Shown: positions 2,908 to 40,862 of the stretch, piece after piece
How the letters are laid out: each line of letters starts with the position of its first letter
How positions within the stretch are numbered: position 1 is the first letter of the stretch
Origin: Dudresnaya verticillata
Lineage: Eukaryota
Length of the DNA: 64,000 nucleotides
Direction of reading: 5' to 3'
NCBI GenBank assembly: GCA_977862235.1
Contig: OZ374558.1
Span: 868,001-932,000, forward strand
The notes under the pieces: model-generated
The model's input: the letters and a program-made list of their open reading frames with translations, nothing else
Told to the model about the DNA's origin: nothing
Database searches by the model: none
Program-made: the position numbers and the translations under genes

Positions 2908-3533
2908 TGTGGTGCAAACCGTCTAGAGACGAGTAGCACCTCCGGGTAGTTCGATCCCGGTGGGTAGCACGCTGATAGCGACGGTGTGGTAGAGCGTAGG
3001 AAACGCGCCGAGAGCGGACTGTAAACGCCCTGGGCGGTATAGAGGTAGAAACAAAGAAACAAAGAGAAAGGGAAAAAGAGAAAGAGAGAGACGCGTCTGG
3101 GACGTAGGTTGACGCGGAAGCGCGGGCAAAGCTGCACAGTTGCCTTCGTTGGTAACGAGAGGTACGCACTAGCCAAGGAGCTTCAGGTCCGGGTCCGTCT
3201 TGCCGGGATTTACTCAACGTCCCAGACGGGTTATCTAATATACTCGAGATAATGTCGCATTTAGTGGGGCGACAGGGTTCCATTTTGTGGGAAACCGGGG
3301 GTGAAATCGGAACATTTGTTGCAATCACAGGGCGACACATGCTGATTTGGATGAAGTACACATCCGACATTGCGTTTTTGGTTGAAGTAGTATGGTGAAT
3401 TTTTCAAGCCCCATCCGACAAATCCGATAATGCCGGTGACATGCATTGTTTTGTTCACGACGGGGGGTGAGAATGCAACTTTGTTTACTCAGAGGGGTGA
3501 AATCGGATACTAGAGCGCTACTCCAATGCAGTG

Positions 3534-6500
3534 CTACTCCGCGGTATCCCCGTACAACTGCTTCAGAGGGCAATCTTTCACAGTGTGATCAGTGAGACGA
3601 CAGAGAGAGCAGCTGTACACGCGCTTTTTCTTCGCAGCAGGGCCTTTCTCGTACCAGCTCTTCTTACGCTTCCCGGCGTTGTTGAACGGGCGGCCACGGG
3701 GTGGCGGTAAGGCTTTGGGAATCTGGAGGTTTGCCCTCTTTGCGACAGGCAGCTTCGCATTACTTATAACCTCATCCACGGAGAGTTGGGAAGGAAGCTT
3801 ATACTCCACGTTTTCGTATTGTTTCACCCACGCTACAGAAAGATGCCTACTGTCAATAAAGCGATGCAGGTTTCCTACTCCGTGCTTCTCAACAATAACA
3901 GCAACTCCGTGCCAACATGGGAATCCCGATCCATTTGTGGAATACGCACAGCATAGTGGCGGCGTCTGACGGTTTCTGCTGAGTGCCACATGGCGCAGAA
4001 CTGTACCATTCCGCTGACTTGCCACAGTAGCTTCCATTTGCGACGTTCCATCCACAAATCGAACAGATGCCTGATACACACGAGCCCGTTGCGTCAAACG
4101 AGCGAGGTGCTTTTCCGTCCCAGGTGGGACGGGCGAAGAACACGATATCGCACTTTCCTGTCTGCGCAGAAACTGAGTCCTCTGCGCAAGCACCACCCTC
4201 GTAAGCATCTTCTGTGGCTCTACAGATCGAATGTTGTTCCTGAGATCTGCAGACATCTGGCTCTCCGCTCCTTGAGATGTCGTTACCAGGTCCTTAAGTT
4301 TCGAAAACGCCCTATACAGCTCGCAGTCCGGGAAGCGGCTGAGATAGTCCTTCTGTTTCTTTGAAAAATCTCCCTTGATGGTGTTCACTTCTCTTCTTGA
4401 AGGAGCATGAACGGCGCGTTCATACTAACGAAACCCCTGCGCCTTATTGGATCCCAGCTGCGCAGACATGTTCTTCTTCACATGAAGAGGATCGAGGAAC
4501 AAGGCGGCGTTATTCATAACGTCTCTATACGCGGCGTCGATGGACTTCTCTTGATCCACAATTGTCACCCTCTTCTCGATATCGAAGCCCTCAATGTCAC
4601 CACATGCCTTAAAAACTCTCGTCCACGACGCGATGTCTTCTGATCCGACGAAGTGCGTGAAAACTATTGGACACAGTTGATGATTCGCATCGTACCCTAC
4701 GACTTGAAAACTCGTTCCGTATGACTGGTAGCCGACGCTGTCGCATTGTGCTGCATCTGCAGTCGCGGTGAGCCGTCCATTCGCGCAGTAGCTCTTCGCT
4801 ATCGAGGGCACGAATATCAGACCACCGTGTATCGTGCGTCGTATTCAATGTCAGACACATCCACGTCTTCTGCATCGAAAACAGCATCCTTGGGAATGTC
4901 ACCCCCCTTCTTGCACTGCTCGGAGATATGACGGGCAGACTTCCGCCGTGTTTCCTTCATCTCCGTCCCTTCGCAAATTATCACTTCAACTTCATGCCCC
5001 GCTCCTTTCAGCAAATCGGCGTACCCTTCCAGTGCAGCCATGTCAACCGCCCGAGAGACCGTAAAATGCCGAAGAAGCTCTCTTCGAACACTGCGGTAGT
5101 GACTGTACGGCGGTTGACGAAAATAGATGCGCTTGGCACGAACCACAGACGCAATAATCTTGCATGTTGTATTCGGGTCATGGTCGTGCATGTCCTCTAG
5201 AATTGCCCTCGCCACTTGCTGAGGGGTGTATGCCGGGGCGCAGGACGAAGCACGAGACGAGATCTTCATTGGACTCTCAGCGACGTGTTGCCCGAAACAT
5301 TCATTGAGGTGGTCCTGGTACTTATTGAGCTTCCAAAGCCCCGTCTTCGGCTGCCAATCGAACACGAATGTCGCCGGACACCCCTCGGTACGACAACTCA
5401 TGCGTACTTTGACGGCGGTCTGGTGAAGATTAACACCCCGCTGGACGCCAAGGTTCGCTGTATGAGCTCGGATAAGCTGCTCACATCTCCACCGAGCGTT
5501 TAGCGCAATCCCAACCTCCACGTGCACATCCACAATTCCTCGTGGCTTCCAGGTCATTGCGGCCAAACGTTCCGCCCGCAGAGCTTCCCTGGCACGATGC
5601 AGAGCCCGGCGCTTCGGTTGCCGCTTCTGTATGGCACGGCGTTCCTTCTTATCCAGCCCTTCCGGAATTGGGTCTTCAGCAGCAGGCTCTTCTACGTCGT
5701 CTTCCTCGATCTCAATGGCAATGTATGACATCGGGTCGAACTCCTGGTCAGAGTTGTCGTCATCCTCGGAAAAGTTATTGATGTCGTCGGTACCTCCCTC
5801 GTCACCACCAACTTCTTCGATTTCATCCTCACTGAGGGGCGCATTACCGCCATGACCTCCTCCTTGGCTTCCCACGTTGTCGCACCCCCTACGCACACCA
5901 TCACCAGATCCGGGGGGTCCGGTGTTGTCGCCCTCCCCATGGGCAGTGCACTGCAGTGCACTGCCCATGGGGAGGGCGACAACACCGCATGCGGTCTTCG
6001 TCCGGCTCGAGTTGTTCCCCGATGCCAGACTCGCGAATGCCCTCTCTGTTTGGCGGCCCGACGCGTTCGTCGAGACCAGAGTCGGGATCGACAGACTCGG
6101 GACTGGCTTCTTCTGCGGCATCCCGCTGAGTGCGGGACCTAGAAGGACAGAACAGCGCTCCCTCCGAGCCCTTTCCTCCTCAGCCTCCCTACGAGCCCTT
6201 TCCTCCTCGGCTCTCTGCTTCTCAGCCCTCTCCCCTTCCAACCGCTGTGCCCTCTCCCGTTCCAACTTCTCTTCTTGCTCGCGTTGTCGTTTCTCCTGCT
6301 CCTCCTCTTCCTGTCGTTGCTTGTCCTCCTCCTCCCGCCGTCGCAGCTCTTTCTCTTTCTGTATCCGCTCTTGCTCCTCCCGCCGCCTCTCCTTCTCCTG
6401 CTCACACGTTTCCTGCTCCTCGTTCTCCATTCGATCGAGACCAAGCTCTCGTGGGGAGGCGGTCTTGCTAAAAACGATGAAACCCGGCAGTACAACCTCA

Positions 6501-6781
6501 CCATCGTTCTCCTCAGTGACCTCCATGTACCGTATTTCGTTCTCTGTCTGTTTCATTGCACGAGTGAGAACCTTCATGCAACGGTCAGCAGAGCGTGGCT
6601 GAACGGCGTGCACCTTGTCTGGGTGAACGAGAACGGCCAGGTGACGGTAGGTCTTCTTCATTTCGCGCAGGGTGGCCTTGCTTGGTGACGTACAGAACAC
6701 GTCGAGGAGGCTTGTGGCACCCTCTTCGACGGTTGCGAGATGCCGAATCGCCTGCGGTGTGGTTTGAGGCATGACCCGCAT
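3534..6781 (-). pseudogene. MULE transposase in three ORF segments: J-domain, E/R coiled coil, acidic tract, WRKY/GCM1-type C2H2 domain, DDE core, SWIM finger, zinc knuckle
   Basis: 4817-6781: YRHLAVLVHPDK and CRTEGCPATF...W...QDHLNEC; 4425-4811: TADAA, IVDQEKSI, DPLHVKKN; 3534-4388: CCAY...FPCWH (SWIM) and CSLCRLTDHTVKDC. Confidence 0.85.
5920..5987. repeat. Perfect 68-bp palindrome inside the transposase ORF
   Basis: CGGTGTTGTCGCCCTCCCCATGGGCAGTGCACTG is followed directly by its reverse complement. Confidence 0.95.
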
Positions 6782-7860
6782 TTCGAATGTTTGCGCGCGG
6801 CCGGCGGGAAGTTGCGCGCGGCCTGTGGCAGGAGGTGCGCGACGGAGAGGGTGACAGTGTCCACTCGAGGGTGAACCGGTTGACGCAGGCGGAGGACGAC
6901 GGGATGCTGGTTAAGGGGGCGACGGAGCGAGATTTTTTTGGGTGGAAGATGTGCAAACACGAGCCGCGAGCAGTGGTTCGAGGAGTTGCCGCCCCTGCCT
7001 TCGGTTTCCCTGGGCTACTGCACAACATGCACTGATGCACCGGTGACGAGCTTCATTTTTGATGTTTTAGTGGGGTGAACTTAATCTTGTTTGGGGCGAC
7101 ATGTCAAATTCTTGAACCAGGTGGGGGGGGGGACATTTCAGATTTCACCCCCTCCGTGACGCACATTCGGATAATGTCGCCCTCGGGTTCCGACAACTGT
7201 TGCAAATTCAGGTCCCGGCTGCAACAACAAATGGTTTTTCACTCCCGTTTTCCCTCAAAATCGGACCCTGTCGCCCCCCTAAACCCAAAATCTCCCAATA
7301 TACTATTGCTACGATGCGGGCGGCGATGGCGTGGCGTGGCGTGCGGGAACTCGGGACGCGTATCACGCCACCGCGCGTCTGACACGTCGTCGTAGTCATG
7401 CAGCCGCGTACCCGCGGGTAAGGAGTAGCTTACAGGCGTGCGCGCGCATAACGAGTACCTTACTGGCGCGCCCGCGTACCGGTAGAGGTGATCCGGATTC
7501 GGATCCCGATCCCTTCCAGCACTGCTGGCGCGTGGTCATTACAGGCGCACGCCTTAAATAGTGACGGATCCCGATGGGTAATCCCGATGCCGGATCCAGA
7601 TCCAGTCCGGATCTGGGCCATACTTACAGATGCGCGCCTTACACCTCCTGGATCCCGATGGGTGATCCAGATGCGTGCCGCGCCGGGCGTACAGTGCTGG
7701 AGCCGCCAGGCCCGTGCACGATTGCGGCGTCCGTACGCCGTTGGGCCGACCGTCCGTGACGTGTTCGCGCGCGCCCACAGCGATTGGGGCTGCCCGTCGG
7801 TCGTCGGCTTATCACACGCTCAGCGCTAAAAGGGGCCCACCCCCCTTGCACGACATCATT

Positions 7861-9280
7861 ATCGAACCATGCTTCGATAATGACACCCAATGTCTGTTTC
7901 CGACCACCGTCGGGGGCGGTCTTGGAGGTTCGTATAAAGGGGTCGGGTAAAAACGCCGGCCAGGGGGACTGGAAGCAGCTAAGATACAGCGTTGCTCGTA
8001 AACGATACTACGAGTGATTCGCTGACATGTCGGCGACCTGTCATGATTTGATGTAGAAGCGCGGGATGCTATTCGGTCAATCCCTTCCAATTTGTGAGGA
8101 GGTATACAGAAATGAAACGCGTTGGTGTCTATTATCACTCCAAGATGTCTCATTCGCGTGGCGCCGGGGCCCCATACCCCCTTGTCCACATGACGGAGCA
8201 TTGCTAGTTTTGCAAAAAGGTTGTCGAGGATATGAAATATATGACGACAGTATTCGGGCTTGTTTGGATGGCCTTTTCTCCCAGGGGCTATACGATAGTC
8301 ATCCATCCAGACCAAGACCCGCCATTCCATCTCCTCCCTCATACATCTCGTAATAGGGATTAGTGTGTAGCAGAACCAGTAAGGTCTGTGTGTCCAGCCG
8401 AATGGGAGAGCTATTCAGCGGTAGTACTGTCCGTTGTAACGAAAACACCAATCCCACATACGAGGATGTAGTTGAAAATGACGGTATCCCGACTTCTAGT
8501 CGAACGACGACAGGCGGTCTACCTGTATTTAGCAGGATAGAAAGGAACTTAGTGCCTCCATCGGAACGGAACGCTTCCGCCAATGCTGACTCTGCTTTTT
8601 GAGATTGATTACGAATCGAGGTTTCCCCTTTTGTCACTCTACAAATGCAAATGGTACCAGCTTTCCTTGCTTTTACGCACCGCTTGGCATATTTTCTACT
8701 ATTCAATTGGGAATAGCCGAACTTGCAACCTTATTTGAGGTCCTTGGTTACAAGACGAAGGTCCTTTGAGCATTGGGGTATTTGTGGAAGTATTACGCCC
8801 TTGGTAAATTGAATATTTGGGGGTCCCAGATGCCGAACTGTAGCAGGCGGAGGATATAAGCTGTGCCTCCGATCATCTTCCAGGTAAGGGATTTGTTTTG
8901 AATGTGGAACCAACGGCCCTGCGACCAGGACTGCATGCACGGGGAGGGCTCGACCATGGTCAGTACGAGCTAGTCGTTGTTTACGACTCTTCGGTTTTTG
9001 CGGAACTCCCTTTTGTATCCGCGTTACCAACCGCTTGTTTAGTCAGTGCTTTGGATGTTTCAATAGTATACTTTGCAGATAATTCATTAAATACAGAAGG
9101 GTATATTTCTGATAGAATCTGTTCCCGCTGTGCCACAGCTTTGTCTCAACCAAGTCCGCCAACTGCAGGGCCTTTCTCCAGGACAGTCTTGAAATGCGCC
9201 GTACGAAACTCCAAGACCTCCTTGGCAACTTCCAAAGACAGGAAGACGAGATTTAAAAGAGACGCCCTTGTTTTGCAGCA
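7861..9280 (-). mobile_element. Degraded DIRS/PAT-like element 'D', gag C-terminus and RT
   Basis: RVLVWMDDY...LRHVDKGVWGPGATRMRHLGVIIDT; gag-like EVLEFRTAHFKTVLEKGP...ELSAKY; continues at 2907 once the LTR and MULE are removed. Confidence 0.85.
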
Positions 9281-10134: not shown

Positions 10135-10470
10135 GGAAGAAGGGATAGACTTGCCGTCTCGTAGGGAGAGCGACCGGCGGTGGCTATATATACTGTAGCC
10201 GCCATGTGGGGAGAGACCCCGAGTTGCACTTCGCAGATTATGTTCCCATTGCAAGAACAATATGAACTTTTATCTTCCGGCGCGCGCATGCATCTGTTGG
10301 AGTCCTTCTGATTCTGCTTGCGACGGATGACACAGATTCGTTGCAATTGAGTCCAAACTGGGAACGCAGCCTCATGCTACTCGATCGGGGTTTCGGACGC
10401 TCAGCCGAGTTCGCTATTCCCCGTAGTCATTATCTTTTCATCAGCGTAAACCATTGACACCATATGAAAA
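10135..10470 (-). repeat. 3' copy (A2) of the element A terminal direct repeat
   Basis: Near-identical to 14202-14526 apart from a few substitutions and an 11-bp indel. Confidence 0.95.
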
Positions 10471-10504
10471 TCCCGTCTCGGAACCGTGCATGGCACGGGA
10501 GAGG

Positions 10505-11581
10505 CTACTGCGGGGGTGGGAACCGATCGGTAGGGAGTAGTGACCAGAAGTAGTCCGAGATTTCCGGTGTAACCTCCAGGCGACCATCAAAGTAGACGTT
10601 AACCAGCATGCGGTCAGAACTCCACTGTCCAAGAAAGCGAACAACAGGAATGGGGACCCCAAGCAGGATGAGAGCAGTAACGCTGCCGCTCCGTAGACTA
10701 TGGGAAGAGTAAGAAGTAAAAGGGGGAGGCACAATCTGAAGTGCAGAGAGAAGCCTTTGCAGAGCAGCTGTCACGTGTTGCGCTCCAGGAGTATCTCCTG
10801 CAAATGACCAGTACAAGCGAGAAGGGGGAGCTCGTCGTTGCGCTTCGAAGTACTGTGCTTGAAGGGAGAGAGGGTTTAATGCCCCCGCTGCAGCACAGAG
10901 AAGACTCATAGCGGGTGCCCCCCGAACGGGACGCCCTTTCAAAGTTCGAGGCCGTGCAGTTATGCAGAGGATATCAGAGCTATGTTCTTGTACTTCATGC
11001 CGTACATGGACATCTTGAACTTGAACGGTTCTCCCAGAAGCCTCGCGCCATGACATAAGGTACTGAAATTCAATGAGTGCAGCGTCCCTTTCCTCTCGCG
11101 TTCCCATTGCTTGCTGTAGCCCAAACTGGCGAATGCGAGCAGCAATATTTGCGGGTAGACCCGCGCGGACATCGCGATATGCACCTCGAGCGTCATCCTA
11201 TCGCCGAAAAGCACGAATGAGGTCTTGCAGGACTTGACCTGCACAAGGATCGGGAAGCTCTGCACGTGCATGTGTTGTCCTAATGGCGGATAGGTAGTGG
11301 TCCAAGGACTGGCCGTGGATACGATTCTCTTCAAACAAATGTCCTACATAGGCCAAGACTGTCCCTCGAGACGCTGGGAGTGAACGATGTCCTTCATCCA
11401 TGCAAAAAGTGGTAAACTTTCGCCACTGACTTGACTTCGACTGCACAGTACTCTGGCTCAGTGCATGAGCAGCCAGTCTTATACTGGACGATCCACCCCT
11501 AGTGCGAGGGACGCGATCTCGGATGGCAGACTGGATCGCGAGAGAGGCCGTCGGCCGACTTCGGCTATCTCGATTGCCCAT
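10505..11581 (-). pseudogene. Tyrosine recombinase of element A with one in-frame stop at 11198-11200
   Basis: Core-binding region LPASRGTVLAYVGHL...YLSAIRTTH; catalytic SWRE (R), HSLRSG (HxxR), GQW, VNVY (Y). The two ORF-track segments are in frame, 30 codons apart. Start ATG inferred. Confidence 0.88.
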
Positions 11582-13512
11582 TGTGGATTGACGGACGCGG
11601 AGTCGAATAGGGAGCCGTGTCCGGGATGTATCACGCGGGAGGTTAGACAAAGCCGTTGTAGTAGCTTGTACCAAGACGTCCCGGTCCAGTGTGGCACTAG
11701 AATGACCCCGTGTGCTTCCTCTGCTTCTATTTTCAAGAGCGTGAACGCGATGAGCTGAGGTGGGGGGTTCCAAAGACGACTCAGTCCGTCCCCCCAATAC
11801 TCCTGGAACTGTGCGCGTATGACCTTCGAGCGGGCCGCGGGGGCCTCCTTGAGTGGCCAGAAGCGCCGAACGCGCTGTAACTTGAGAGAGACTTCTAATG
11901 AGTGAAGTAACGAAGGGGTTGCGGCTAGATCCCGGCTGTCCCATGTGCGGCTCAGGCGGTCCGCGTGACGGTTCAAGGCGTACGGGATCCAAACCGCCTT
12001 GAGAGTCACCTTCATTTCCCGTAGGAGGTTGTGCAGGAGGCGTAGCTCTGGCATGAGTTCGGGGCTGGAAGAAACCATATTGTTGACGATATGGAACACC
12101 GACATATTGTCTACATGTAACCTGATCCTCCCTTGATGTCCGTGGAGCCGCGCGGGAACCAAGTCCTCTTCCAGTGTCCGCCGTACGGCCACGAGCTCCC
12201 TGTAGTTGATAGATTTCAACCTTAGGAAGGGGGACCACATCTGTCGCACATGCACCTCGCCATCCGCTCCAGCCGACAAGTCCCTCCCAAGGGTGCCACC
12301 AAATCCAACGTCCGAGGCATCCGTGTGGAGGTTCCAGGATTCCTGGCCCCCGTAAATAAGACGCCCATCGCCCACCAACATCTCGCTCCAGGCCTTTAAA
12401 TCTCTTAGGCCAGAATTGCTCAGACGAATTTTGCAGGATGGATATCTTCCAATGCGACGACGGTCCTGTAGTAGATCGTTGTATAAACCTCGAGTGAAGA
12501 AACGCGCCAGCGGAATTGGGGTTAGCTGCGAAACAGCCTTCCCTGTCAAAGTCCGGACTAGGGACTCCCGTACCCAGCGCTTGGACTTCGCAACAGTAGT
12601 GAGGGGGGCTTTGGACAAGTTCCGGAGCTTTCCAATCTTTTGGTCCGTAACGAAATATCGGAATTGCTCTGTGTCGATGACCACCCCCAGATGTTCTAGG
12701 CAAGTAGTACCTCGGCCCCAGACTCCTTTGTCTGGATGTCTTAGTAGTCCAAGCTTGAGAAATAACGAATCTAAGACCTCGCATAGCTCCATGCAATCCA
12801 TTTTGGTGCTTGGCGAGGTACCAACACCAGGGACCAGTAGATAGTCGTCGATCCATGTTAACACACGGCAGTTTAAAGCAGACCTGATGTATCTGGTTAA
12901 CGGGGCCAGCAGATGGCAAAACCAAAAAGGTGACCGTGTCCACCCGAAGGGAAGGGGATTACATCTGTAGAACTTGCCCTGATATCGAAATATAAAACAG
13001 TTCCACATCCGACTGTGCAGAACAAAATGGCGATACCCCCCTTTCCAGTCGAAGGAAAGCATATGGTCCCCAACCAGCAGGCAAGCCCCAAAGGCGGAAA
13101 GCGTCTCCATAAGCACTGACTTTTTGCACCAGTGGGTTGACTGCTTCTTTAAATTGATAATAAAGCGCCCCTTTCCTTGACTCCAGTCCACGAATGCTGA
13201 AGATACGTAGTTGCCTTTCGCCACTTGCTGCAGGGCGTAATCCTTTGTTATAGCCTGATACACTCCGGCGGCACAGCCTTCGTCTAGGTCCTTCGCAGCG
13301 AATTCTTTGTCGGTCGCATTCTGGGGAATCTCCGGAAGCATGACACCTTCTGTAAAGGGAACATCCGGGGGATCCCAGATTCCAAAGCATAAGCAGCGTA
13401 TTATGTACGCTGATGCCCCGATGGTACGCCAAGCCTCGGCATTTCTCCTTGTGAATGCCCATCTGGCGTGACGCCAAGTAGGTGGTCGGTGTGGTTCTGT
13501 GCTGTTCATCAT
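11479..13512 (-). CDS. pol: reverse transcriptase, RNase H and degenerate adenine-methylase-like domain (677 aa, open)
   Basis: GRFIINLK, SFDWKGGYRHF, LPFGWTRSP, WIDD, HLGVVID; RNase H HTDAS, INYREL, VDN, NRHADRLSR; C-terminal LWNPPP...LLKIEAEEAHGVILVPHW...WY. Confidence 0.93.
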   Translation of the reverse strand: MMNSTEPHRPPTWRHARWAFTRRNAEAWRTIGASAYIIRCLCFGIWDPPDVPFTEGVMLPEIPQNATDKEFAAKDLDEGCAAGVYQAITKDYALQQVAKGNYVSSAFVDWSQGKGRFIINLKKQSTHWCKKSVLMETLSAFGACLLVGDHMLSFDWKGGYRHFVLHSRMWNCFIFRYQGKFYRCNPLPFGWTRSPFWFCHLLAPLTRYIRSALNCRVLTWIDDYLLVPGVGTSPSTKMDCMELCEVLDSLFLKLGLLRHPDKGVWGRGTTCLEHLGVVIDTEQFRYFVTDQKIGKLRNLSKAPLTTVAKSKRWVRESLVRTLTGKAVSQLTPIPLARFFTRGLYNDLLQDRRRIGRYPSCKIRLSNSGLRDLKAWSEMLVGDGRLIYGGQESWNLHTDASDVGFGGTLGRDLSAGADGEVHVRQMWSPFLRLKSINYRELVAVRRTLEEDLVPARLHGHQGRIRLHVDNMSVFHIVNNMVSSSPELMPELRLLHNLLREMKVTLKAVWIPYALNRHADRLSRTWDSRDLAATPSLLHSLEVSLKLQRVRRFWPLKEAPAARSKVIRAQFQEYWGDGLSRLWNPPPQLIAFTLLKIEAEEAHGVILVPHWTGTSWYKLLQRLCLTSRVIHPGHGSLFDSASVNPQWAIEIAEVGRRPLSRSSLPSEIASLALGVDRPV

Positions 13513-14147
13513 TTCTTCGCGCCGCCCGCCTTGGGCGCATCGCGATCCTTTTCTGCGGACGGGTTGCTGTTGCCTGCCTTCGCAATACTCTTGGCAGCCT
13601 CAACAACGTACTTGGCAGACAGCTCTTTATATACGGAGGCATACATTTCGGATTGGACCTGCGCATGTTTTGCCTCAACTTTGGTTTCCACGAGTTCTGC
13701 AATCTGACTAGCCATAGCAGGACCTTTGGTGAGCACGGCGTAAAAATGGGAGGTACGCATAGCCAATACTTCCTTGCTGGCCAAGAGAGAGTCATACAGG
13801 ATCTGTAGCATCCTTCCTTGCTCGGCAGCGTCTCCAGAATCCTTGAATAAGTCAAATGCACAAAGACCCTGCTCAATCCAGGTCCCCGCACTGTGTACAT
13901 ACTCCAATTCTTTTCCATTTCTCCTATCCTTCCGGGTAGTGTCCCGATAGAGATTTGTATCGGGCTTAAAGTAGCTCGGCTGGTGCGGCTGCAGGAGTTC
14001 AGCGCGAGGCCATATAACTGAACGACCAGCAAGACTGCTGGCAAGAAGATGGTTGATGACCTTGCTGTAGTCCTCCGGACCGGCGTCCAGGATGTTCGTT
14101 GACTTGAACGGTGACTCAGCATTGTTATCAGTGGGTTCAATTGACAT
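13509..14147 (-). CDS. gag-like ORF1 of element A (212 aa from the first ATG after the repeat)
   Basis: Homologous to ORF1 of elements B, C and D (KELEYVHSAGTWIEQ, EVLAMRTSHF, ELSAKY); stop overlaps the pol ATG (ATGA). Confidence 0.8.
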   Translation of the reverse strand: MSIEPTDNNAESPFKSTNILDAGPEDYSKVINHLLASSLAGRSVIWPRAELLQPHQPSYFKPDTNLYRDTTRKDRRNGKELEYVHSAGTWIEQGLCAFDLFKDSGDAAEQGRMLQILYDSLLASKEVLAMRTSHFYAVLTKGPAMASQIAELVETKVEAKHAQVQSEMYASVYKELSAKYVVEAAKSIAKAGNSNPSAEKDRDAPKAGGAKK

Positions 14148-14201
14148 GCGGTTAGATACGTCCCCACCCGGAAAGCGAGTGTAACACCTTTCGACTCTTG
14201 A

Positions 14202-14526
14202 GGAAGAAAGGATAGACTTGCCGTCTCGTAGGGAGAGCGACCAGCGGTGGCTATATATACTGTAGCCGCCATGTGGGGAGAGACCCCGAGTTGCACTTCG
14301 CAGATTATGTTCCCATTGCAAGAACAATATGAACTTTGATCTTCCGGCGCGCGCATGCATCTGTTGGAGTCCTTCTGATTCTGCTTGCGACGGATGACAC
14401 AGATTCGTTGCAATTGAGTCCAAACTGGGAACGCAGCCTCATGCTACTCGATCGGGGTTTCGGACGCTCAGCCAAGTTCGCTATTCCCCGTAGTCATTAT
14501 CGTAAACCATTGACACCATATGAAAA
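14202..14526 (-). repeat. 5' copy (A1) of the element A terminal direct repeat
   Basis: Matches 10135-10470. Confidence 0.95.
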
Positions 14527-21126: not shown

Positions 21127-24100
21127 CTTTTCATTGTGTGTCAAACGCTTAGCTTTATATGGATGAAAAGACTCACTAGGGATAGTGAACGTTTCTGAGC
21201 GTCCCAAAGGAGTATCCTGGGTACTCTATATGGTTTGTAGAAATATGCCGCTGGGATTGATACACAATTTGTATGGTACCCAAATTGCAGGACACTGCAT
21301 TGGGTAATTACCAGAAATGGTATCCGCAACAGCGCCTCCCTCTATAGTTCCCTGGCAATACTCTACAGTGCCTATTGCACTGCCCTCGGGACTTCTGAAC
21401 GGTACTTAAGGGAGCGTGAAAGCGTTCCCTACAGAATACCGCAAGTTCATCCTTTCCCAAGAAGTTGGTAAAGGTGCTACGCTCATTTCGGAGTGGGAAC
21501 GTCTCAGACCGATGACCGAGAACTACGCCTTTTTACAGACAAAAATCAAGGATGCCGAACCCGAGGAGTACAGCAAGGTTCTTAATCACATCATGACCAA
21601 CAGTCTTGTTGGTCGTGCTCAGCTTTGGCCCCTGAGCGAGCTGGTCCAGCCGCACCACCCAAGTTATTTCAAGCCACAATCCAACTTCTATCGCGACACT
21701 CTTAAGAAACATCACCGGAATGGAGAGGAGCTCGAGTATATTCATAGCTCGGGCACCTGGTTGGAACAGTCGCTTGCCGCTCTGGAACTTTTCAGGTTGT
21801 GTACAAATCACTTTACGCACTTGAAAAGATCATATTGGGGACAGCGAGCAAGCCGAGCGTACTACAAATCAGAATGTACTGGACGCAGGCTGATTCTGGG
21901 TTGCACACTCGGGCTGGGTGGCAACTGCTGAGATTTGTTCCCCTGAGATCGGAAGCAATCCCGGTCTACTAGAGGAGCAGATGTTGGGCCACTTGAGCTG
22001 AGCCGCTAAGTTCTTTCCTTCGTTCTCATCCAGGTTGAGAACAAGGGATTTCCGTCGTTAGACAGGTGAACCACTGAAACCAAGGTCGGAACCCAACTCT
22101 TCCATATCTCCCCTTTCTATTTCGCCGGCAGACCCTACTGATTATGCTTCCCTTGTCAACCACCAGCTTGCTGCTGGTATGGTGGGGCGTAGGGCTTTAT
22201 GGCCTCGCTCAAGCCTCGTTCTTCCAAAAGAGGTCGGGTTCTTTAAGTCTGAGACTACTTTATATCTCGAGACTCATCGAAAGGACCGTCGCAACGCGAA
22301 AGAGCGCGAATATGTCCATTCGGCTGGTTGCTGGATTGAACAGTCCCTTGCCGCTCTCTCCCTACTGGTCAGCGAAACGGATACGGACAAACAGTCCCGC
22401 TTGCTCGGAATTCTCGAGGAGGGGCTCAATGGTGCGAGTGAGGTTCTCGCGATGCGTACCGCCCATTTCCAGACAGTACTAGCAAAGGGCCAGAGTCAGG
22501 CCAACCAGATTGCTGAACTTGTTGAAACCCGCGTCGAAGCGAAGCGGCATCAAGTCCCATCAGAAGCGTATGCAGATGTCTACCAGGAACTATCTGCAAA
22601 GTACGCCATCGAGACTGCAAAGAGCCTGGCGAAGGATGCTACCAACGGTAGCAAGAAGCCAGACCATAAGGGGTAATGTCACCGCGACAGAGCCCGGTTC
22701 AAGTTCACTGGGGCCAAGCCCGGTGGGCCGGAACTCGACGAAGAGCGCGGAATTGCGAGCAAATCCGCGCGTCCGCCTTTGTCATCCGCACTCTGATGTT
22801 CGGAGTGTGGGACCCTCCCCAGCGCCCGTTCACCACCGGACGGGAGCTTCCAGAGATCCCTCAAAGCCCAAAAGACCTCTCTTTTGGACGGAAGGAGCTG
22901 CGAGAGGGGTGTGACATCGGGACTTACCAACAGGTGAGTTCCGAGCATGCACAGAATCAACTCAAACGCGGCTTCCTAGTGTCAAGCTCTTTCGTGACCT
23001 GGCATCAGGAGAAGCCTCGATTCATCATAAATCTCAAAGAGTAGAGCACTCATTGGGACAAGAAATCTGCGCGCATGGAGACGCTATCCGCATTCGGGTC
23101 TTGCCTGTGTCCCGGGGACCACCTTTTGTCCTTCGACTGGTCCTCGGGATACAGGCATTTTGTACTACACCAGCGGATGTGGGACTGATTTCTATTTCGG
23201 TACGATGGTGGGTACTACCGTTGTATTGCTCTACCGTTCGGATGGACGGCATCACCATTCTGGTTTGTCAAGCTCCTAAGTCCTCTTGCCCGCTACATGC
23301 GCGACGAACTTTCTCTGCGCGTTTTAGTATGGTTGGACGACTATCTCATCGCACCAGGGGACGGAAGCAGACCCAGTACCGCATCAGACTGTGCAATGGT
23401 ATCGGAAAAGCTGGACCGTCTCTTCGAGAAATTAGGAATGGTACGACATCCGGCCAAGGGCGTGTGGGGAACCGGTACTACACGTATCGAGAATTTGGGT
23501 CTCGTCATAGATACTGTGTCGGTCAGGTATTTTATCTCCCCTCCCAAGCTCTTGCAGCTTCAGAAAATGGCCAGTTTGCTACTCAGGACGGCTCGGCAGA
23601 GAAGTCCCTGGGTTCGGGAGAATGTCTTGGAAAGCTTTTGCGGAAAGGCTTCTCTCAGCTTATTCCCCTTCCCCTTGCACGCTTCTTCACTCGCAGCTTG
23701 TACGACGCTCTGAAGGACGACGCGCAGCGACGTGGGCGCTACCCAGAGCGTACAGTGAAGCTGAGCCATGCGGGACTCAGGAACCTGCAATCTTGGGCAA
23801 CCATGTTGGCGGGCGACGGTCGGCTGATTGGCGGAGGCCAGCCGGCTTGGTGCCTGCACACCGATGCTGCCGATGTTGGCTACGGTGCAACGCTCGGACG
23901 CGATATGCAAGCCGGCTCGCCAGGGGAAATCGAGGTACAAGGCATCTGGTCCCCATTCCTCAGGCTAAGGTCTATTACTCTTCGGGAACTTATCGCTGTT
24001 CGCATGGCTCTACAAGACGCAATGGTACAGGCTCGCCTGTCGGGCGATCAGTCTATGCTGCTCCTACAGATAGACAATATGGCTGTCCTTCATATAATTT

Positions 24101-27100
24101 TGAACATGGTTTCCGCAAAGAGGGAACTTATGGAAGAACTCCGTCTGCTACACCGGTTGCTCGTCCAAATGAAGGTAACGATCCGAGCCGAATGGCTCCC
24201 CTTGGCTTTGAACCGACACGCGGACACGTTGAGCCGGACTTGGAACCCCAGAGACCTCCGGGTGACGCCCTTATTGCTGCAATCCGTCGCGACTTCGCTC
24301 CAATTACAAGTCGTGCGGCGTTACTGGCCTCTCGGGGAGGCCCCAATCGCCCGTCGCAAGGTAATAGTCGCCCAGTTCGGCGAGCACTGGGGCGACGGGA
24401 AGAGCCGGCTATGGAACTCCCCACCGCCATGGATCAACGCTACGCTTCTGAAAATCCGGGCGGAGGGCGCTCACGGCGTCATCTTGGTGCCCCACTGGAC
24501 GGGAGCGCCCTGGTTCGGCTTACTGTGTCAGCTATTGCTCAGCAGCCGCGTCATCAGCCACGCTCCCGGCCATCCGCTCTTTACTTCCGAACGCGCCAAC
24601 CCCGCTTGGGGACTACTATTGGCAGAAGTAGGGACACAGCTGGCCAAGCACTGCAACCGAGGATCGCTACTCTCGTCCCTTCCACCTCCGCGGGAAGAGC
24701 TGCGGTCACCTTAGCGGGGTACGGAGTGGCGCCCTCCACTGATCGGACGAAAACCAGTCAATGGCGGAAGTTCCAACGCTTTTGCGCGCGGAATGGCCAT
24801 CGCGACCTTCCGGCTCATGTGGGTACTGTGCTAGCGCACGTGGGATTCTTGTTCGAAGATCGTATACATGGACGTTCAGTATATCACTACATTTCGTCCA
24901 TCCGCACGATGCATAAGCGCCAAGGTCTTCAGGATCCACTCCATGGTAACCCTCACTCCGACCTCTTGCGCGCATTTCGCTATCAAGATGACCAGCGTGG
25001 CGAGCTTTCGGATGTTCGCGCAGCACTGCCAGCCGCAATTGTCTTCCGCATTCGACAGATGGGACTGCCAGCGCTTCCAGGTTCTCTCGAGGAACATCAG
25101 GCTGCGTTGGTGGAGTTCCAGTTCTTGATTTCGTGGAGAGAAAACTCCGTCCGTACAGTTCATGTTCAAGACGTCCATTGTGCTGTCAATGGTAACGCCA
25201 TCACTCTAACTGCTCGTTCGCGTTCGCTCAAAGGGCGACTGATCAGCGGTGTTGGCGCCTGCTCCCTGACCTGCAGGCATAGTCCACCTGCATTTGCCTC
25301 CAGAAACCCTCTGGCCCTACAGCGTCGATATTTTACTCTCCGTCAGCGTTCTTCAGATCCTGACGATCTCTACTGGGCGCACCCGGGCCTCGCGCTACGC
25401 CCTCAAGTTGTTTGAGCTGCCCTAGCGGCATGTATTACGGCTTTAAAAGTTGTTGCGCCTCCTTTCTCTTCATATACTTCGCACAGCCTTCGCAGTGGAA
25501 GTGTTACAGCGCAAGTCCTCCTTGGTGTACCACTTCCGGTTATCACTACTCCAGGGGCTGGCGTAGTAGCACTATGGTGGTCAACGTTTACTATGATTCA
25601 CGTCTGCACCTGTCGACGGAAATGAATCTTTACTTCTGGTCACTGCGGGAGCCTACCACATCCTCGTTCCCGTCCCCTCCGTAAGCTTCGCAGGATCAAG
25701 GTACTGTCCTCGCTCCGGTACCGGATTTTCAGGTTGTGTACAAATCACTTTACGCACTTGAAAAGATCATATTGGGGACAGCGAGCAAGCCGAGCGTACT
25801 ACAAATCAGAATGTACTGGACGCAGGCTGATTCTGGGTTGCACACTCAGGCTGGGTGGCAACTGCTGAGATTTGTTCCCCTGAGATCGGAAGCAATCCCG
25901 GTCTACTAGGGGAGCAGATGTTGTGCCACCTGAGCCGAGCCGCTAAGTTCTTTCCTTCGTTCTCCCACCCACCCTCCCACGCTCTTTTCCTTCAAATTCT
26001 TTCCTTCGTTTATTACCACTTCACAATACGAAGAAGTGTTCTAGTCTCTATCTTCTACATTCTACTGGCATACAAGCCACTTTGGGTTAGTCATTGTTTT
26101 GGTGATTACTACTTCCTCCGAATAAAGTAATCATTTCCTTTTCAAGTCCAGTTCAGATGCACAGGAGCAAGGTCGCTTGCTTTCCATCCTCGAGGAGTCA
26201 ATCCGCGCCAGCAAGGAGATCCTCGCAATGCGTACATCGCACTTTCATGCGATTCCCACGAAAGGCCCTGCTCATGCCGCCTCCTTGTCGATCTCGTCGA
26301 GTCCAAGGTCGAGGGAAAGCATTCTCAAGATCCTTCCTCCATTTATGCCGACGTCTACACGGAGCGCGCTGCAAAGTATGTCAACAAGGCGGTTCAAGGA
26401 ATTGCTCGTAACACGGTCTCATCCAAGGAGGGTGGGTTCGGCCAATAATGGACACGCACGGGCAATCACGCCCAGGTTCCTGGTCACAGGCACGTTGGGC
26501 ATTTACTGCGAGACAAGCCAAGGAATGGTCCCGCATTGGAGCATCCTGTTTCGTTACCCGGATGTTAACTTTTGGAATTTGGGATCCTCCGCAACGGCCA
26601 TTCTTGGAAGGCGCGGTACTGCCTACCATACCACAATCAAAGGAGGATCTAGAATTTGCAAGATCGGAGTTGGGGGAAGGATTCCGTGTTGGTACGTACC
26701 AAATAGTTTCCGAAGCGTATGCAAGGGAAAGGGTGCGCCGAGGTTGCTACGTTTCCTCCGCCTTTGTCGAATGGGGCTCTGGCAAAGGACGCTTCGTAAT
26801 CAACCTAAAGCGGCAATCCTCCGATTAGGACAAAAGGTCTGTTGCTATGGAATCCCTCGGTTTATTTGCTTCTTGCCTGGTGCCAGGAGATCACATCCTG
26901 TCATTCGACTGGAAAAGTGACTATCGCCATTTCAGACTCCACTCCCGCATGTGGGATTGGTTCTTGTTTCGCTACGACGGCCACTTTTATCGCTGTATTG
27001 CTCTATCGTTTGGCTGGACGAGGTCTCCGTACTGGTTTTGTCACCTTTTAAGTCCACTAACAAGGTACATGCGCTCCGCATTACAGTGCCGAGTACTCCA

Positions 27101-28790
27101 ATGGATATACGATTATCTCTTGGTCCCCGGCATCGGTCCTTCTCCAAGTATTGCTACAAACTGTCAAGATATCGCATCGATATTGGATGCACTTTTCCAA
27201 CGACTGGGTTTGTAGAGACATCCAGAAAAATGTGTTTGGGGATATGGTGCCACCCGCATCTCACACTTAGGAGTAACAATAGACACCGAAGCATTCCGGT
27301 ATTTTGTAACCGAAGAGAAGCTGAGCAAACTTCAAGATCATGCATTAGCTTTGCTGAAAGCAGCCTCCGAAGGTTCGCGGTGGGTACGGGAGCGGTCTCT
27401 AGCAGAATATACAGGCCGGGCTATCTCACAACTACTCCCCATTCCACTCGCCCGGTTTTTCACGCGTGGCTTGTACGACGATATGAAAAATGCAAACCTC
27501 GGGGTGGAAAGTACCCGGAGCACAGTGTACGGTTATCAAACGCTGTGGTACGCGATCTCAAGTCCTGGAAGCACATGCTTCAAGGAGACGGCAGATTGAT
27601 AGGCGGCGGCACTCCAAATTGGAATCTGCACACCGACGCTGCCGACTTCGGATTTGGGGGAACCTTAGGGAGAGATATGGCGGCCGGTTCCCCCGGAGAA
27701 GTGGAGGTGCAAGGCGTGTGTTCTCCATTATTGCGCTTGAAATCGATCACCAACCGAGCGTTATTGGCGGTTCGTCTCGCGCTGCAGTCCGACCTCGTAA
27801 AAGCTCGAGTCTCCGGTTCCCACGCCAAGCTTCTCCTGTACGTAGACAACATGGCCGTCTTTTATATTATCAACAACATGGTTTCTAGTGCACCGGAACT
27901 AATGGACGATCTACGGGCACTTCACCAAGTTCTGCACGATATGAAAGTCACAATACGCGCTGTATGGCTTCCTTCGGCTGTCAACAAGCATGCGGATCGC
28001 CTCAGCCGAACATGGAATCCGAAGGACTTAAAGGCGACTCCTTCACTGATGCAATCGTTGCAGGAATCCTTGCAGCTTCAGCGGGTGCGGCGGTTTTGGC
28101 CACTAGGGGACGCTCCGGCGGCTCGAGCGACGGTCATGAAGGCGCCATATGGCGGTGTTCTGGAGAGACGGTTGCAGCCGGCTCTGGAATCCTCCCCCAG
28201 TGGATCACAACCACACTCCTGAAGATAGAAGCAGAACAGGCTCACGGCGTTGTGGTGGTTCCACACTGGACGGGAGCCAGCTGGTACAATCTGTTGCGTC
28301 GCGTTTGCCTATCGTCACGCGTGGTACGATCTACAGAGGGTCCCCTCTTTGACTCCGCATCCGTGCACCCCACTTGGGATCTCGAGCTGGTAGAAGTCGG
28401 ACCCAGCACAGGATGCAGTCCAAACTTCAATCGAAGCTCAGCTCCCTCAAGATTCCATTGCGCGTGCCAGCCGAGGACTAGCAGCGTCTGCCATTGCCTC
28501 CTCAACAGGAGCTGCGAAATCAAGCCAGTGGAAGAAATTTGCTTTGTTCTGTTTAGAGTAAGATCTCACGGCGCTCCCTGCAGCACATGGATCCATCCTC
28601 GCATATGTCGGATTCCTATTCGAGGAAGGTCGTGTACATGGGACCTCTATTGACCATTATCTCTCGGCTATTCGTACGCGTCACACCCGTGACGGCTTTC
28701 AAGATCCGTGTCAAGGCCCTGCCCTGCAGGACCTTTTGCGGGCGTTCAAGCGGGAGGATGACGGGCGAGGAACTCTACAGGATGTTCAGG
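21127..28790 (+). mobile_element. DIRS/PAT-like element 'C', degraded, split in gag by element B and truncated in YR
   Basis: Starts CTTTTCATTGTGTGTCAA; gag ...EQSLAALELF (21794) resumes KSSSDAQEQGRLLSILEE at 26145; pol 26448-28480 with frameshifts; YR N-terminus to ~28790. Confidence 0.88.
21788..26144 (+). mobile_element. Full-length but decayed DIRS/PAT-like element 'B' nested in the gag of element C
   Basis: 239-bp direct repeats 21789-22027 and 25726-25964; gag to 22676; pol 22676-24714 (WLDD, HTDAA, LWNSPP); YR ~24600-25684 (SWRE, HSLRSG); CTTTTCA at both ends (21788-21794, 26138-26144); AATAAA at 26121. Confidence 0.92.
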
Positions 28791-28991: not shown

Positions 28992-29405
28992 TGTAAGGAA
29001 GTACCTTTTAGGTCTCTTGTGAACTTAAAAAGTGCACTCAATGAGAAAGCCACAGAGCGGGTACCTGGTAGCGGTGTTAGAGCGGGAGGAGCCCAGAGGG
29101 TAGACGAGGGCACGTAACTTGATAGGAAGCACGATACTGAAGGTATTTCACTGGGCGGGCGGTTAACCGGGCACGGGTGACAGGTGTGCTGCGGTGCCGA
29201 GAGCTTGGAGATGTAGTTGGGGCCGGAAGGTGCTTTCCTTTACTGTACAGTGACCGCTACGGGAGATACCCTTATATGGTACTCCGACTGTCAGGTAGCA
29301 CCCCTCATACTGGGCTATATACAGGCCCCCTATCCTACGCTATAATTTCTAAAATAAATAGACAGATACTAAGCTACTGACCTACAGGGAGACACTTGGA
29401 CCAAT
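28992..29405 (+). mobile_element. Solo-LTR-like insertion in the piggyBac-like ORF
   Basis: TGTAAG...CCTACA (to 29386) plus 19 bp; 5-bp TSD CATAG; TATA-like CTATATA and AATAAA on +; removal rejoins the RGG frame to ORF 29596-30333. Confidence 0.7.
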
Positions 29406-30886
29406 CATAGACTACCCGTCATGTCCCTGTTGGCGTCCTATAGGTAACGCTATTTCAGCGCATACACGAGGGCAGAGGGCCCACTTCTGTAAGCCCTTCA
29501 CTGTATTACACATAGCTCTTGAGCAGGACTTTTCAAATACTGTTATCGCAGAGAGCGCAAGGCTATTCTGCTCCTCTGATCTTTCCTGGCTTGACGTGGA
29601 GATGCGCGCAGGCAATGTTAACGACAGAAAGGTGGGTATCATGGTGCTCATCATGGAGGAGGCACTTCAGCTTTGTCTAAAATGGCTGAACGGGCACATC
29701 GCCTTGCATGATCCTGGTAGGAGGCCTGTGGGGATGCCAGACATGTATCGGTATGTCGCCGTTATGCTTTTATCACACCTGTGCGGGATTACCCTGGAGA
29801 AGGCGCTGGATGTTCTCCCTCGATTGGACTGCAATTTGCCTCCAGCCGACAGAATTTGGTTCATAAGCCAGAACATTCTCGCGTACCCTGCGACGGGCCG
29901 CGGTAATATGGGGGACGAGGTCTGGAGCTCGCAAAGGGACGCTACGTCGCGTCTGGACCCGTTTGAGAAGACGGCTTCCCACATGTCTCGGAACATCTTT
30001 TTAACTCCTGCCCACACAATTGTGACGCTTGATGACGATCTTTATGGCACGCGCTCGAAAGACAACCAAGTTAAGACCTTGAGCGCTCGGAAGGCGGACC
30101 GGGAGGGTCACGCGGCCGATGTCGTATCGGATGCGCTTTTCCAGCTGACGTATGCGGTGAGATTCCGGCGGAGAGGGCAGTCGCAGTCTGATAATGTGGA
30201 GAAACTTCTCGACGTCTTAATGGAAGGAAGCGGGAGCACTCAATTCATGGTATGGTGGCTACAGCTGACCGCGGCTACGGCTCTATGTCACTATTGCGGA
30301 GTATGCTTCGTCTCGGAGTGGGGGCAATTCTAATTATGCCTCAGCATCTACTGCGGTGCCATCCCTTTGTCGGCGCTTCTCATTTCTCGGTGACAAGAGT
30401 GGACGACAACGAAGATGTACCTCCGAATGGCAGGGAGGAGGAAGGAGGGGTTGAGAGCGAGACGTCGAGCAGTGACGAGCCTGACAGCGGCCCGCAGCTT
30501 TCGAGCGCGTATCCCACTGACGCGGCAGATCGGGAACCGGAGCCTGTGAACGACGGCGAGAATACGCTGGCACGTCTTCCGGCCGCTGTGTATGACCAAA
30601 AGGCTGCATTTGTCGTGAGGGATGAGCCCGGCGTCGGCTTCGGAAGCTTCTTTGCGAAGCGGAGCTTGAAGCTATCCGCGGGTGGTGGGCCAGCCAATGG
30701 CGTCGCAAAGAGGTCGCAGGTGATGGCGGTCGCAGTTCGAGAGCGTGGTACGCCCCATTTCAGCAAAGTGTTGAGGTTTTTGTACCCTACCCCGTCATCT
30801 TTATCCAAATCAATCGAGACTTGGTTCGCTGTTTCGCGCAGCCACGCGCACGAGAAAGAGCTACTATTCGCAAAGACTCTCGGTTA

Positions 30887-30976
30887 AGCCGCATCTGATC
30901 CCTTGGCGGACGCAAGCAGTCCGAGAGCAGGAGCCGCATCTGATCCCTTGGCGGACGCAAGCAGTCCGAGAGCAGG
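30887..30976. repeat. 45-bp tandem duplication
   Basis: AGCCGCATCTGATCCCTTGGCGGACGCAAGCAGTCCGAGAGCAGG twice. Confidence 0.95.
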
Positions 30977-33200
30977 TATTGAGAGCACGGTACTCAGAAA
31001 CTGTACTGTGCCTACAAAAGGGCAGAGGTGCGCAGATTGGTTCATCATGCGACAATTCCGCGTTATAGGCACCATCCCTGGCAGGATTATGCTCGCCGAT
31101 AACAATGTCCGAGTACTGCTGGGATACCCGCCGCATCCTGACCCACCCCCGGATGAGACGGCGATGCTCAAGGCCTTAGTGCAGTCATGGTTCTCCGGAG
31201 CAAGATCCACCGAGGCGATGATGCGCGGAACCGCGAATGCGTCTGACGTTCTCGGAGCTGTATGCAACAAAGATTTTATCGTGGCCGCGTTCAAGTGTGG
31301 AATGGTAGCGCGGAAAGACGCCGACTGGCTGGCCTGTTCACCGGATGCTGTGGCGCTTATTGACGCGAACGCGCTCGGTCTGTCGGACAGCAGCGAGCCT
31401 CAGCTTGCATCTGTGGAGATTAAGACACGTGGAGCAGCTTCAAGCTCGGAAAGATATCTTTCCAATACGACGACGGATGTGAAGACCTGTGTGGTCGGCG
31501 ATGCAGACTTTCAGAATCTAATTCCCCGCAAGCACTGTGGACAGCTACTGCAGCAGGCCGTTGTGTTGTCTGCTGAGTACGTCGTTTACATAGCGGCAGG
31601 AGAGACAGGAATTTTATTCGCCGCTGTGGTCAAAGTTGCGACGGCCGTTTCTGAGCAGTGTCTGGTCACGCTGAATCTAGGTGCAGTGCAGGCAGTGTCG
31701 TGGGCGCACTGCAGCGATGCGAGCGTCCCAGCATTCGCAGACTCGGACTCACGTCGTGTAATTCAGGAGCGTCTGTCGTTTTGGAAGGTCGTCAATACCT
31801 GCGTGAAGGAAAATGGGCCACTTCCGCCACTCAAGCTGTTCAAGCACGGTTCTCAATCTCTGTACTCAAAAACCAAAGGTGGGGTTGACGGCGGCACTCA
31901 ATACCGCGCCACACTGCGCTCGTCATCGTCCGTCCTGAATTGGGAGCAGAAACTAGTATCTCAGACTCTCAAGAATTTGGCCGTGAATGCTTTCATCTCG
32001 TGGCGAATGCGCCAGCGGAGTGATCTTCTGGAAAGCATGCACACGTTTGGTGGAGTTGACAAGTTCCGAACTGCTCTGAACAAGGTTCAGTCCCTCGGAG
32101 ACTTCATCTTTAAAGTCTGTCCCGAGCTGTTGCGGCACGCGGGCCGAATCGCAACAGAGAGAGATGCGTCAGAGACCCCAACGCTGAGACGGTCGACCTC
32201 GATAACGCGACAGGAGCCCGCTTGCTGAAGCTGGACAACAGCGAAAAGGAAATCGCGTTGAATTCTTCAACACGAAAGACGGCATGACGATCCGCCTGGC
32301 GATGCAGCCACACTTGCAAAGATTTGTCAAGAAAAGGAGCACTGCGCACTATACGGCTCAGGGCCGGAGAGACGTCGAAGCGAAGTCATGTGCAGTACAT
32401 ATAACGTTCACCTTTGCGTACGCGTGGCGAAAGATAAGCGGAAATCGTGTTGGACAAAATGGCACGAGACCAGACGCCTCGAGGCAGGGTGATCCGACGC
32501 GTCTCCTCGCGTGGAGAATCGTAGCCGTAGAGTTGAGAATCCTCTTCCATGCGCCAGCCCAGGGGCAAAGACTCGAAGCGGAGGCCGCGGAGGAGCTTCT
32601 TCTGTTAGAGCTCCGGAAACTGCCGCTGAGACTCAGCCTGCTGTAACACCTGTCCCTGCTCCAAAGCGAAGACGCATAGGTGTCGTGCGTCGCGCATCAC
32701 TATCTAACCATGCACGCCGCGGAGGAGCTTCTTCTGGCAGAGCTCCTGAAAACGCAGATGAAATTGAGCCTGTCCCAGCTCAAACGCGCCGTCGCGCAAG
32801 TGTCGGGCGTCGTGCGACGTTATCTCACCGTAAAGGTCAGGAAGGAGCTCCTTCTGGCAGGGATACTGATACGGACGAGATTGGGCAAGACCGAACTCAA
32901 GAGCGCAAGAGAGTAGGCGCACAAGTCGCGTCGGCGAGTCCTACGTCTTTATCTGAGTTTTTAAAGTGTGCCAGCGGTTGTGGGTGCGATCCCCAGCTAT
33001 CCCAAGTGGATGCTGCTCACAAGTGTGAGAAGTGCGGACAGCCGGTGCATGGATTTTGCATTCGCGCACCTGATGGCTCCATAGGCAGTGAGAAGTACGA
33101 GGGGTCTGGAATGGGGGGATTCTGCAAGCCGTGCTCGCTGCAGGCGACTCCTACAACTCAATGACACACTTTACCTAGTAAGCAGACCCAAAGCAACCTG

Positions 33201-40408: not shown

Positions 40409-40862
40409 ATGCACAAATGGGGTGACCCACAGGCGGACGTGACCCGATTCCACACGTTAGCCGACGCAGTCACCCGACGGACCGACACCCCTGACCCAGG
40501 CCTCCCGCGCAAACCTGGACACACTCTCCAACGACGCGGATGACACCCCACGCAGTGATACAAGCCCACTGCAGGCCGGTTAATTCAACCGCGCCCGCTA
40601 CCACTGCTGACCCACCAGCGCACACCAACCAACGGCCACCCAACCGGTCGAAACGGTTGGACACCAGCCACCAGCTGACCCTACCAAGGTCAAAACTAGC
40701 CCGCCACGCGCACCACACGCGACACAAGTAAGGCCGCAGGCTACGACAACCGACCCCACTGCAGGGCAAACGGCAAAAGGAACTCAAACCACCGCCGACA
40801 CCCTACCACAGCAAACAACACCGTCATAGGACCGGTGACCGCCCCAGCAAGCAGGCCCCAAC

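Follow-up and report, generated by a model that had tools for sequence, protein, structure and literature searches.

The 64,000-nucleotide stretch of Dudresnaya verticillata DNA analysed here (the window) carries a copy of a Mutator-like element (MULE), which we term J-MULE, in which an Hsp70 co-chaperone J-domain is fused to the transposase. This fusion is genuine rather than an isolated capture event, and J-MULE is a conserved and apparently undescribed MULE variant. A preliminary description of the window had placed the J-domain in frame with a Mutator transposase. This holds for the N-terminal half of the transposase but not for the DDE domain, which lies outside the 654-aa open reading frame (ORF), beyond a frameshift. 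The same description overlooked both the broken state of this copy and the existence of J-less relatives with intact catalytic motifs.

The element is flanked by terminal inverted repeats (TIRs) and contains the 654-aa ORF, both as originally described, and intact relatives align by tblastn to the window from 6781 to 3537 (Table 1). The outermost 13–15 nt of the element ends, between the TIR arms and the target site duplication (TSD), are degenerate. A TSD had been reported at 9 bp; the duplication is present, but it is exact over 8 bp and reaches 9–10 bp only with one mismatch. Eight or more exact bases were found at 9 of 500 random boundary pairs, and the exact 8 bp lie within the 8–11 bp typical of MULEs in the relevant part of PMC6446971. 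A subterminal 10-mer occurs three times near the element ends (3298, 3494 and 7142; 0.5 occurrences expected in the window). It is a candidate transposase binding site, the motif having been picked after it was seen.

Table 1. Features of the J-MULE copy, in window coordinates.
Feature	Position	Strand	Remarks
J-MULE element, defective copy	3245..7296	-	~4.05 kb; delimited by TIRs, TSD and tblastn with intact relatives
8-bp target site duplication, left copy	3237..3244	+	exact direct repeat
8-bp target site duplication, right copy	7297..7304	+	exact direct repeat
Left TIR arm, 47 nt at 87%	3260..3306	+	62 nt at 82% if extended to 3321
Right TIR arm	7237..7283	-	87% complementary to left arm
654-aa ORF: J-domain, linker, N-terminal transposase half	4817..6781	-	ATG 6781, stop 4817; end follows frameshift
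J-domain, aa 8-90: extra N-terminal helix, helix I, basic helix II, HPD, long helix III	6512..6760	-	Pfam, family profile against PDB, model, fold matches
Short family-specific post-J segment, aa 91-108	6458..6511	-	weakly conserved
Charged helix and acidic linker	5627..6454	-	
C-x4-C-x22-H-x3-C motif, aa 463-495	5297..5395	-	putative zinc-binding DNA-binding domain
Frameshift between N-terminal half and DDE domain	4826..4832	-	frame -1 to frame -3 at 4829
DDE domain, first part: first D 4757, second D 4556, DxxH motif 4493	4428..4829	-	Pfam MULE
In-frame stop codon	4425..4427	-	Leu in relatives
C-terminal part: catalytic E motif 4277, SWIM-like region, RGRP (AT-hook-like) motif, CCHC-type knuckle	3534..4424	-	

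The window copy is defective, carrying both a frameshift and a nonsense codon. Alignment of intact relatives by tblastn places the change of frame near 4829, before the DDE domain, and the Pfam MULE match (27.6 bits, at the cut-off; window 4844–4428) falls in the second of the two frames. The ORF terminates at the frameshift and never reaches the DDE domain, and further on the second frame is cut by a nonsense codon; the copy therefore encodes no working transposase and lacks the intact transposase reading frame that an autonomous MULE requires. Its product could at most be a 654-aa fragment with the J-domain and the putative DNA-binding region and without the catalytic domain. An intron was considered as the cause of the frameshift and was ruled out, as relatives align across the site without extra DNA. 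The copy differs at two further positions among 88 columns that are invariant in 21 relatives. Within the linker, and in frame, lies a perfect 68-bp palindrome (5920–5987) made of two 34-nt arms without a spacer. Most aligned relatives have nothing that corresponds to it, and it may have arisen by inverted duplication in this copy alone.

Other elements and repeats are present in the window besides J-MULE. A 25-nt inverted repeat (96%; 2883–2907 and 7879–7903) bounds a 5-kb interruption that encloses the element, and the interrupted gene is a decayed reverse transcriptase running from 8930 to 7910 and resuming at 2837–2035. The arrangement suggests that a non-autonomous element of ~1 kb, for which no TSD is evident, is nested here. 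Several copies of tyrosine-recombinase retrotransposons (10135–14526, 21500–25964 and 26100–28750) have overlapping ORFs, split direct repeats of 95–98% identity, and matches to reverse transcriptase (E 9e-6) and integrase (E 8e-6); we take them to be DIRS/Ngaro-like. Three long ORFs at 29362–32228 have no Pfam match; they look like a disrupted gene that belongs to a different DNA transposon and includes a nuclease-like region. A repeat of 500–780 bp is present in four copies at 76–81% identity (38472–39255, 40860–41524, 59677–60435 and 63347–63998). Pfam searches with 16 of 19 other ORFs selected from the window returned no informative family.

The J-like stretch is the minus-strand translation of 6548–6721 and, as first noted, its HPD triad is intact (6625–6617). 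The suggested check against Pfam DnaJ gave a match to aa 34–76 (E=7e-6) that at 26.5 bits falls below the gathering cut-off of 27.8. Scores are below threshold in most family members, while the relatives P0052 (30.8) and P0024 (29.1) exceed it. Searching the PDB with a profile of the family returned 83 sequences at E up to 1. DNAJB8 scored best (E 7.5e-8), and DNAJB6, DNAJC8 and E. coli DnaJ were also matched; DNAJB8, DNAJB6 and E. coli DnaJ lay at approximately 1e-7 to 6e-6. In the Atlas, aa 1–115 of P0002 grouped with DnaJ clusters at 0.93.

Modelling of aa 1–115 of the window protein (pLDDT 87) predicts an extra helix at residues 8–16, a short helix at 25–28 and two longer helices at 38–52 and 62–90. 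The HPD triad, residues 53–55, occupies the loop between the last two, the hairpin arrangement expected of a J-domain. There is no clear canonical helix IV. Compared with 48,161 chains, the modelled fold comes closest to the J-domain of RBJ/DNAJC27 (6jmg; rmsd 1.9 over 74 aa, 28% identity) with a Z-score of 8.6, a value that for a helical domain is under the structure tool's own caution level. 2ys8 is matched at Z 8.5, and Z reaches 8 in two rows of the fold comparison. Foldseek also places the RBJ/DNAJC27 family first (E 0.018), with no match to the J model at E 0.001 or better. RBJ/DNAJC27 is thus the best structural match in both searches, and the extra N-terminal helix is covered by it; by sequence profile it is outscored by DNAJB8, DNAJB6 and DNAJC8, and unlike J-MULE it is a fusion to a Rab-like GTPase. 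Profile and fold searches alike indicate that the predicted domain of the family matches a true J-domain. When the window J region was compared with longer proteins in search of a donor gene, only P0008 was returned out of 249 candidates, and no donor was found.

To establish how widely the fusion is shared, relatives were sought with the transposase core alone, so that selection did not favour J-domains. The core-only searches gave 7 matches among 1188 candidates, 26 among 5988 and, at E up to 0.001, the best 150 of 987 representatives; of the resulting 190 proteins, 10 near-duplicate cluster members were omitted from the counts that follow. Among the matches listed, 24 proteins, the window's included, have at least 150 residues upstream of the core; the others of the 190 are fragments or start too close to the core for the J-domain to be judged. 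A J-domain is present in 19 of these 24, and HPD in all 19. The 18 relatives chosen on their core thus share the J-domain with an invariant HPD. Of the 16 distinct proteins of at least 900 aa among the matches listed, 14 carry the J-domain, the linker and a complete MULE transposase in a single frame. The D, D and DxxH motifs are found in 14/14 of these full-length J-bearing relatives, as is the E motif (14/14), and their core identity to P0004 is 39–65%. A Pack-MULE capture would be a fragment held in few copies and outside the transposase, whereas here the J-domain is in frame in 14 relatives. Pfam MULE matches 17 of 21 relatives at E up to 5.

The J-domain is nevertheless an accessory, as J-less relatives exist. 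P0006, P0007 and P0070 are without it, the HPD string at residue 50 of P0070 having been rejected for lack of J context, and so are P0205 (Pedinella, 944 aa) and P0204 and P0118 (Aureoumbra). P0205, P0204/P0118 and P0070 still carry the first D of the catalytic site together with the E motif. Since J-less relatives keep catalytic motifs, the transposase fold has no strict need of a fused J-domain, unless these models are truncated at their 5' ends. Two proteins are partial: P0071 (Pelagophyceae sp. CCMP2097 per NCBI) covers the domain from helix III onwards and is recognized by the family profile, and P0033 is a fragment in the same cluster as the fragment P0032, which has the J-domain and HPD. 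The named relatives are stramenopile microalgae, and the window's own clade consists of Logan and ENA proteins. No relative was found among 36 pattern matches in viral contigs or among 140 matches in prokaryotic genomes; metagenomes yielded three loci out of 265 matches. Two of these, L001 and L002, are 99% identical and have introns, and their contigs end before the J region; neither was picked up by a profile of the post-J segment. Two short introns of L002 are GT-AG-like (about 1120–1190 and 1365–1452); the window copy is intronless.

Constraint on the J-domain was assessed in an alignment of the 19 J-bearing proteins. The J-domain averages 28% identity, compared with 16% for the linker; the putative DNA-binding region stands at 37%, and the catalytic and C-terminal parts reach 49–50%. 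Of the 79 columns of the J-domain, only those of H, P and D never vary, and the median modal frequency over the domain's columns is 0.39. Helix II has 2–5 basic and 0–2 acidic residues; the position before its conserved aromatic (H-11) is K/R in 18/19 proteins, H-8 is Y/F in 19/19, and H+3 is K/R in 18/19. Because the 19 proteins had been recognized partly via HPD, a profile with the triad masked was also run against the 190 proteins, and among the matches listed there was none in which a J-like domain had a different triad. The preliminary description would have been refuted by a neutrally evolving one-off Pack-MULE capture. This is contradicted by the 18 core-selected relatives that share the J-domain, by their invariant HPD and by 11 chosen pairs, in all of which J identity is greater than linker identity (narrowest 21 vs 20). 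J and core identities in close pairs are 69/69, 72/76 and 46/35. Distances in the J-domain correlate with core distances in a Mantel test (rho 0.38, 0/2000 permutations), compared with 0.14 and 109/2000 for the linker. Judged from these alignments, the comparisons show the J-domain to be under constraint at the protein level.

The history of the fusion can be read in outline. With the deep pair P0052/P0079 left out of its construction, a family profile still gives these two proteins 72 and 62 bits, against 31 and 25 for Pfam DnaJ. Since the profile lacking the pair outscores Pfam DnaJ on it, the sequence comparison favours one ancient J-transposase fusion. In a core tree of 23 rows (LG+G4), the J-bearing proteins are found in two starred groups, a 16-row clade with the window copy and the pair P0052/P0195; the partial P0071 also counts among them. 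The J-less P0205 is sister of the 16-row clade (100/97, 99/98) and is nested between J-bearing clades. The tree may be read as an old gain of the J-domain followed by losses or truncated gene models, a tentative direction given that the root rests on one long branch.

Outside the J-domain the protein has the organization of a MULE transposase. The full-length model of P0009 (pLDDT 78) has a confident J-domain and a confident core joined by segments of pLDDT under 50, and matches ISCth4, an IS256/Mutator transposase (E 2e-5). Linkers of the family are 80–253 aa long with 24–31% D+E, and that of P0009 is predicted to be largely disordered. For the charged helix and acidic linker together, the length in relatives is 80–224 aa. 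A MULE DNA-binding domain had been claimed for the ORF. The four residues of the C-x4-C-x22-H-x3-C motif are indeed invariant in the 19 aligned proteins, but Pfam finds no MULE DNA-binding family (DBD_Tnp_Mut, FAR1) in the 654-aa ORF, nor any DNA-binding family for 21 relatives, among 25 of 28 families listed. In the model the region forms a helix and four strands. We take it to resemble MuDR/WRKY-type fingers, and this presumed likeness and the invariant motif are the basis of the DNA-binding label.

The surface formed by helix II, HPD and helix III is the Hsp70-stimulating interface of J-domains, and H-to-Q or D-to-N substitution abolishes stimulation, according to sections of PMC10410713 and PMC13254874. 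We propose that the J-domain of J-MULE would stimulate a host nuclear or cytosolic Hsp70. Such stimulation is very probable because HPD is invariant and helix II is basic while the rest of the J-domain drifts. The client would then be set by proximity, since the protein has no client-binding domain besides the transposase, and the tether would sweep Hsp70 onto the occupants of the transposon ends. The least certain step is the last, in which the transposase subunits would themselves be the client. Either the subunits would be kept soluble and their assembly licensed, or the stable complex would be released after strand transfer, with host repair then filling the gaps. Whether the Hsp70 recruited by the tethered J-domain acts on the transposase's own DNA-bound complex is, in our estimate, evenly balanced. 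More tentatively, the fused co-chaperone may dismantle the transpososome after strand transfer, doing from within the protein what ClpX does to MuA; this proposal draws on the remodelling of MuA complexes by ClpX (described in part of PMC5415555), and we consider it possible but somewhat doubtful.

The conservation of the J-domain and HPD would apply equally if the transposase were a DNA-targeting vehicle that, at the TIRs or at the target, aims Hsp70 at neighbouring host complexes such as repressors or nucleosome and silencing factors. Its purpose would be to counter silencing or to free the site of insertion, in the way that T antigen acts on Rb-E2F. A long tether of variable length suits reach to neighbours, and patchy loss of the J-domain fits an accessory in conflict with the host. 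T antigen carries the host-protein-binding motif LxCxE, however, and no motif like it was identified in J-MULE. Related activities are described in sections of two reports: in plants, methylated genes are expressed more strongly through SUVH1/3-DnaJ1/2 (PMC12902148), and red-algal Plavaka and Mutator elements have putative chromatin-modifying accessory genes (10.1101/2025.02.11.637652). Against a role in countering silencing, the CpG observed/expected ratio is about 1.0 in both element and window, without the depletion that would hint at heavy CpG methylation. On balance we regard action on neighbouring host complexes as unlikely.

Self-limiting control is common among DNA transposons, and the J-domain could act as a brake by which the transposase is handed to Hsp70 for inactivation or degradation, or the element is silenced, until stress, with Hsp70 then occupied elsewhere, releases it. 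J-less relatives are apparently viable, as a brake would allow, and the J-domain protein SILENZIO binds HSP70s and silences on tethering (text of PMC8616336). A selfish element should easily lose a purely negative domain, yet the longest proteins have mostly kept theirs, and we consider a brake very improbable. The J-domain might instead be kept for an Hsp70-free role, as a structural or oligomerization helix bundle, or be the neutral passenger of an old capture. It is divergent, with its low mean identity, mostly sub-threshold Pfam scores, extra helix and extension, and MULEs typically capture host fragments (passages of PMC6446971). Neutral decay, however, would not spare HPD in 19/19 proteins while other columns vary so widely, a structural role would be expected to preserve residues of the domain's core and not the exposed HPD loop, and in close pairs the J-domain is as similar as the core, or nearly so. 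An Hsp70-free role or passenger status is thus a decidedly unlikely explanation. We continue to prefer recruitment of Hsp70 to the transposase's own complex.

If the HPD triad is functional, a single H-to-Q change would separate chaperone recruitment from catalysis, and a role of Hsp70 in eukaryotic DNA transposition becomes testable through transposase solubility, complex turnover, stress coupling and anti-silencing. The 14 intact relatives are natural variants for tests of HPD, and the J-less relatives can serve as controls. Should dismantling of the transpososome prove true, J-MULE would offer a direct handle on the disassembly of eukaryotic transpososomes. More speculatively, a J tag might be useful for engineering aggregation-prone transposases.

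The openly searchable full-text literature yielded no description of a J-domain transposase. No such J-domain is given for other MULE clades in Table 1 (groups 16–50) of PMC6446971, and 'DnaJ' is absent from the main text and three supplements of that survey of 1631 MULEs. Likewise, 'transpos' and 'MULE' are absent from the main text and one supplement of a survey of ~280,000 J proteins, whose datasets could list rare architectures (PMC10410713). The section on Hsp70 hijacking of one review names phages, polyomaviruses, herpesvirus and Plasmodium, with transposons not among them (PMC13254874), and portions of two reports on red-algal elements mention extra ORFs and no J-domain (PMC6431247, 10.1101/2025.02.11.637652). 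J-domains fused to mobile-element enzymes were known before from polyomaviruses, and stand-alone J-domains from phages; the transposase case is unreported in the literature searched.

J-MULE shares with the MULE/MuDR group (Pfam PF10551) its TIRs, its 8-bp TSD, a DDE domain with DxxH, and SWIM-like and CCHC fingers. The fold of the family transposase matches IS256/ISCth4, and its Atlas neighbours are all MULE clusters. A close parallel for the fusion is the polyomavirus large T antigen, likewise a DNA-acting enzyme of a mobile element with its own N-terminal J-domain, although T antigen is a helicase and J-MULE encodes a DDE transposase. The two J-domains match weakly (E 0.037, Z 5.0), and a shared origin is not implied. 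In T antigen this J-domain is necessary for DNA replication and transformation (section 8 of PMC13254874). Phage RB16/RB43 Rki is another mobile-element J-domain, functional by a DnaJ domain swap with an H-to-Q control, but it has no recombinase fusion and stabilizes sigma32 (excerpts of PMC3486835). In the plant SUVH1/3-DNAJ1/2 and MBD5/6-SILENZIO systems, a J-domain brought to DNA by a DNA-binding partner alters transcription (parts of PMC12902148 and PMC8616336); these J-domains are host-encoded, non-covalently bound and directed by DNA methylation, whereas that of J-MULE is element-encoded and covalently attached. Phage Mu may offer a functional analogy, in that a host chaperone, ClpX, remodels the transposase-DNA complex. 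MuA displays a recognition tag for this AAA+ unfoldase, whereas J-MULE carries the co-chaperone itself and its motor would be Hsp70.
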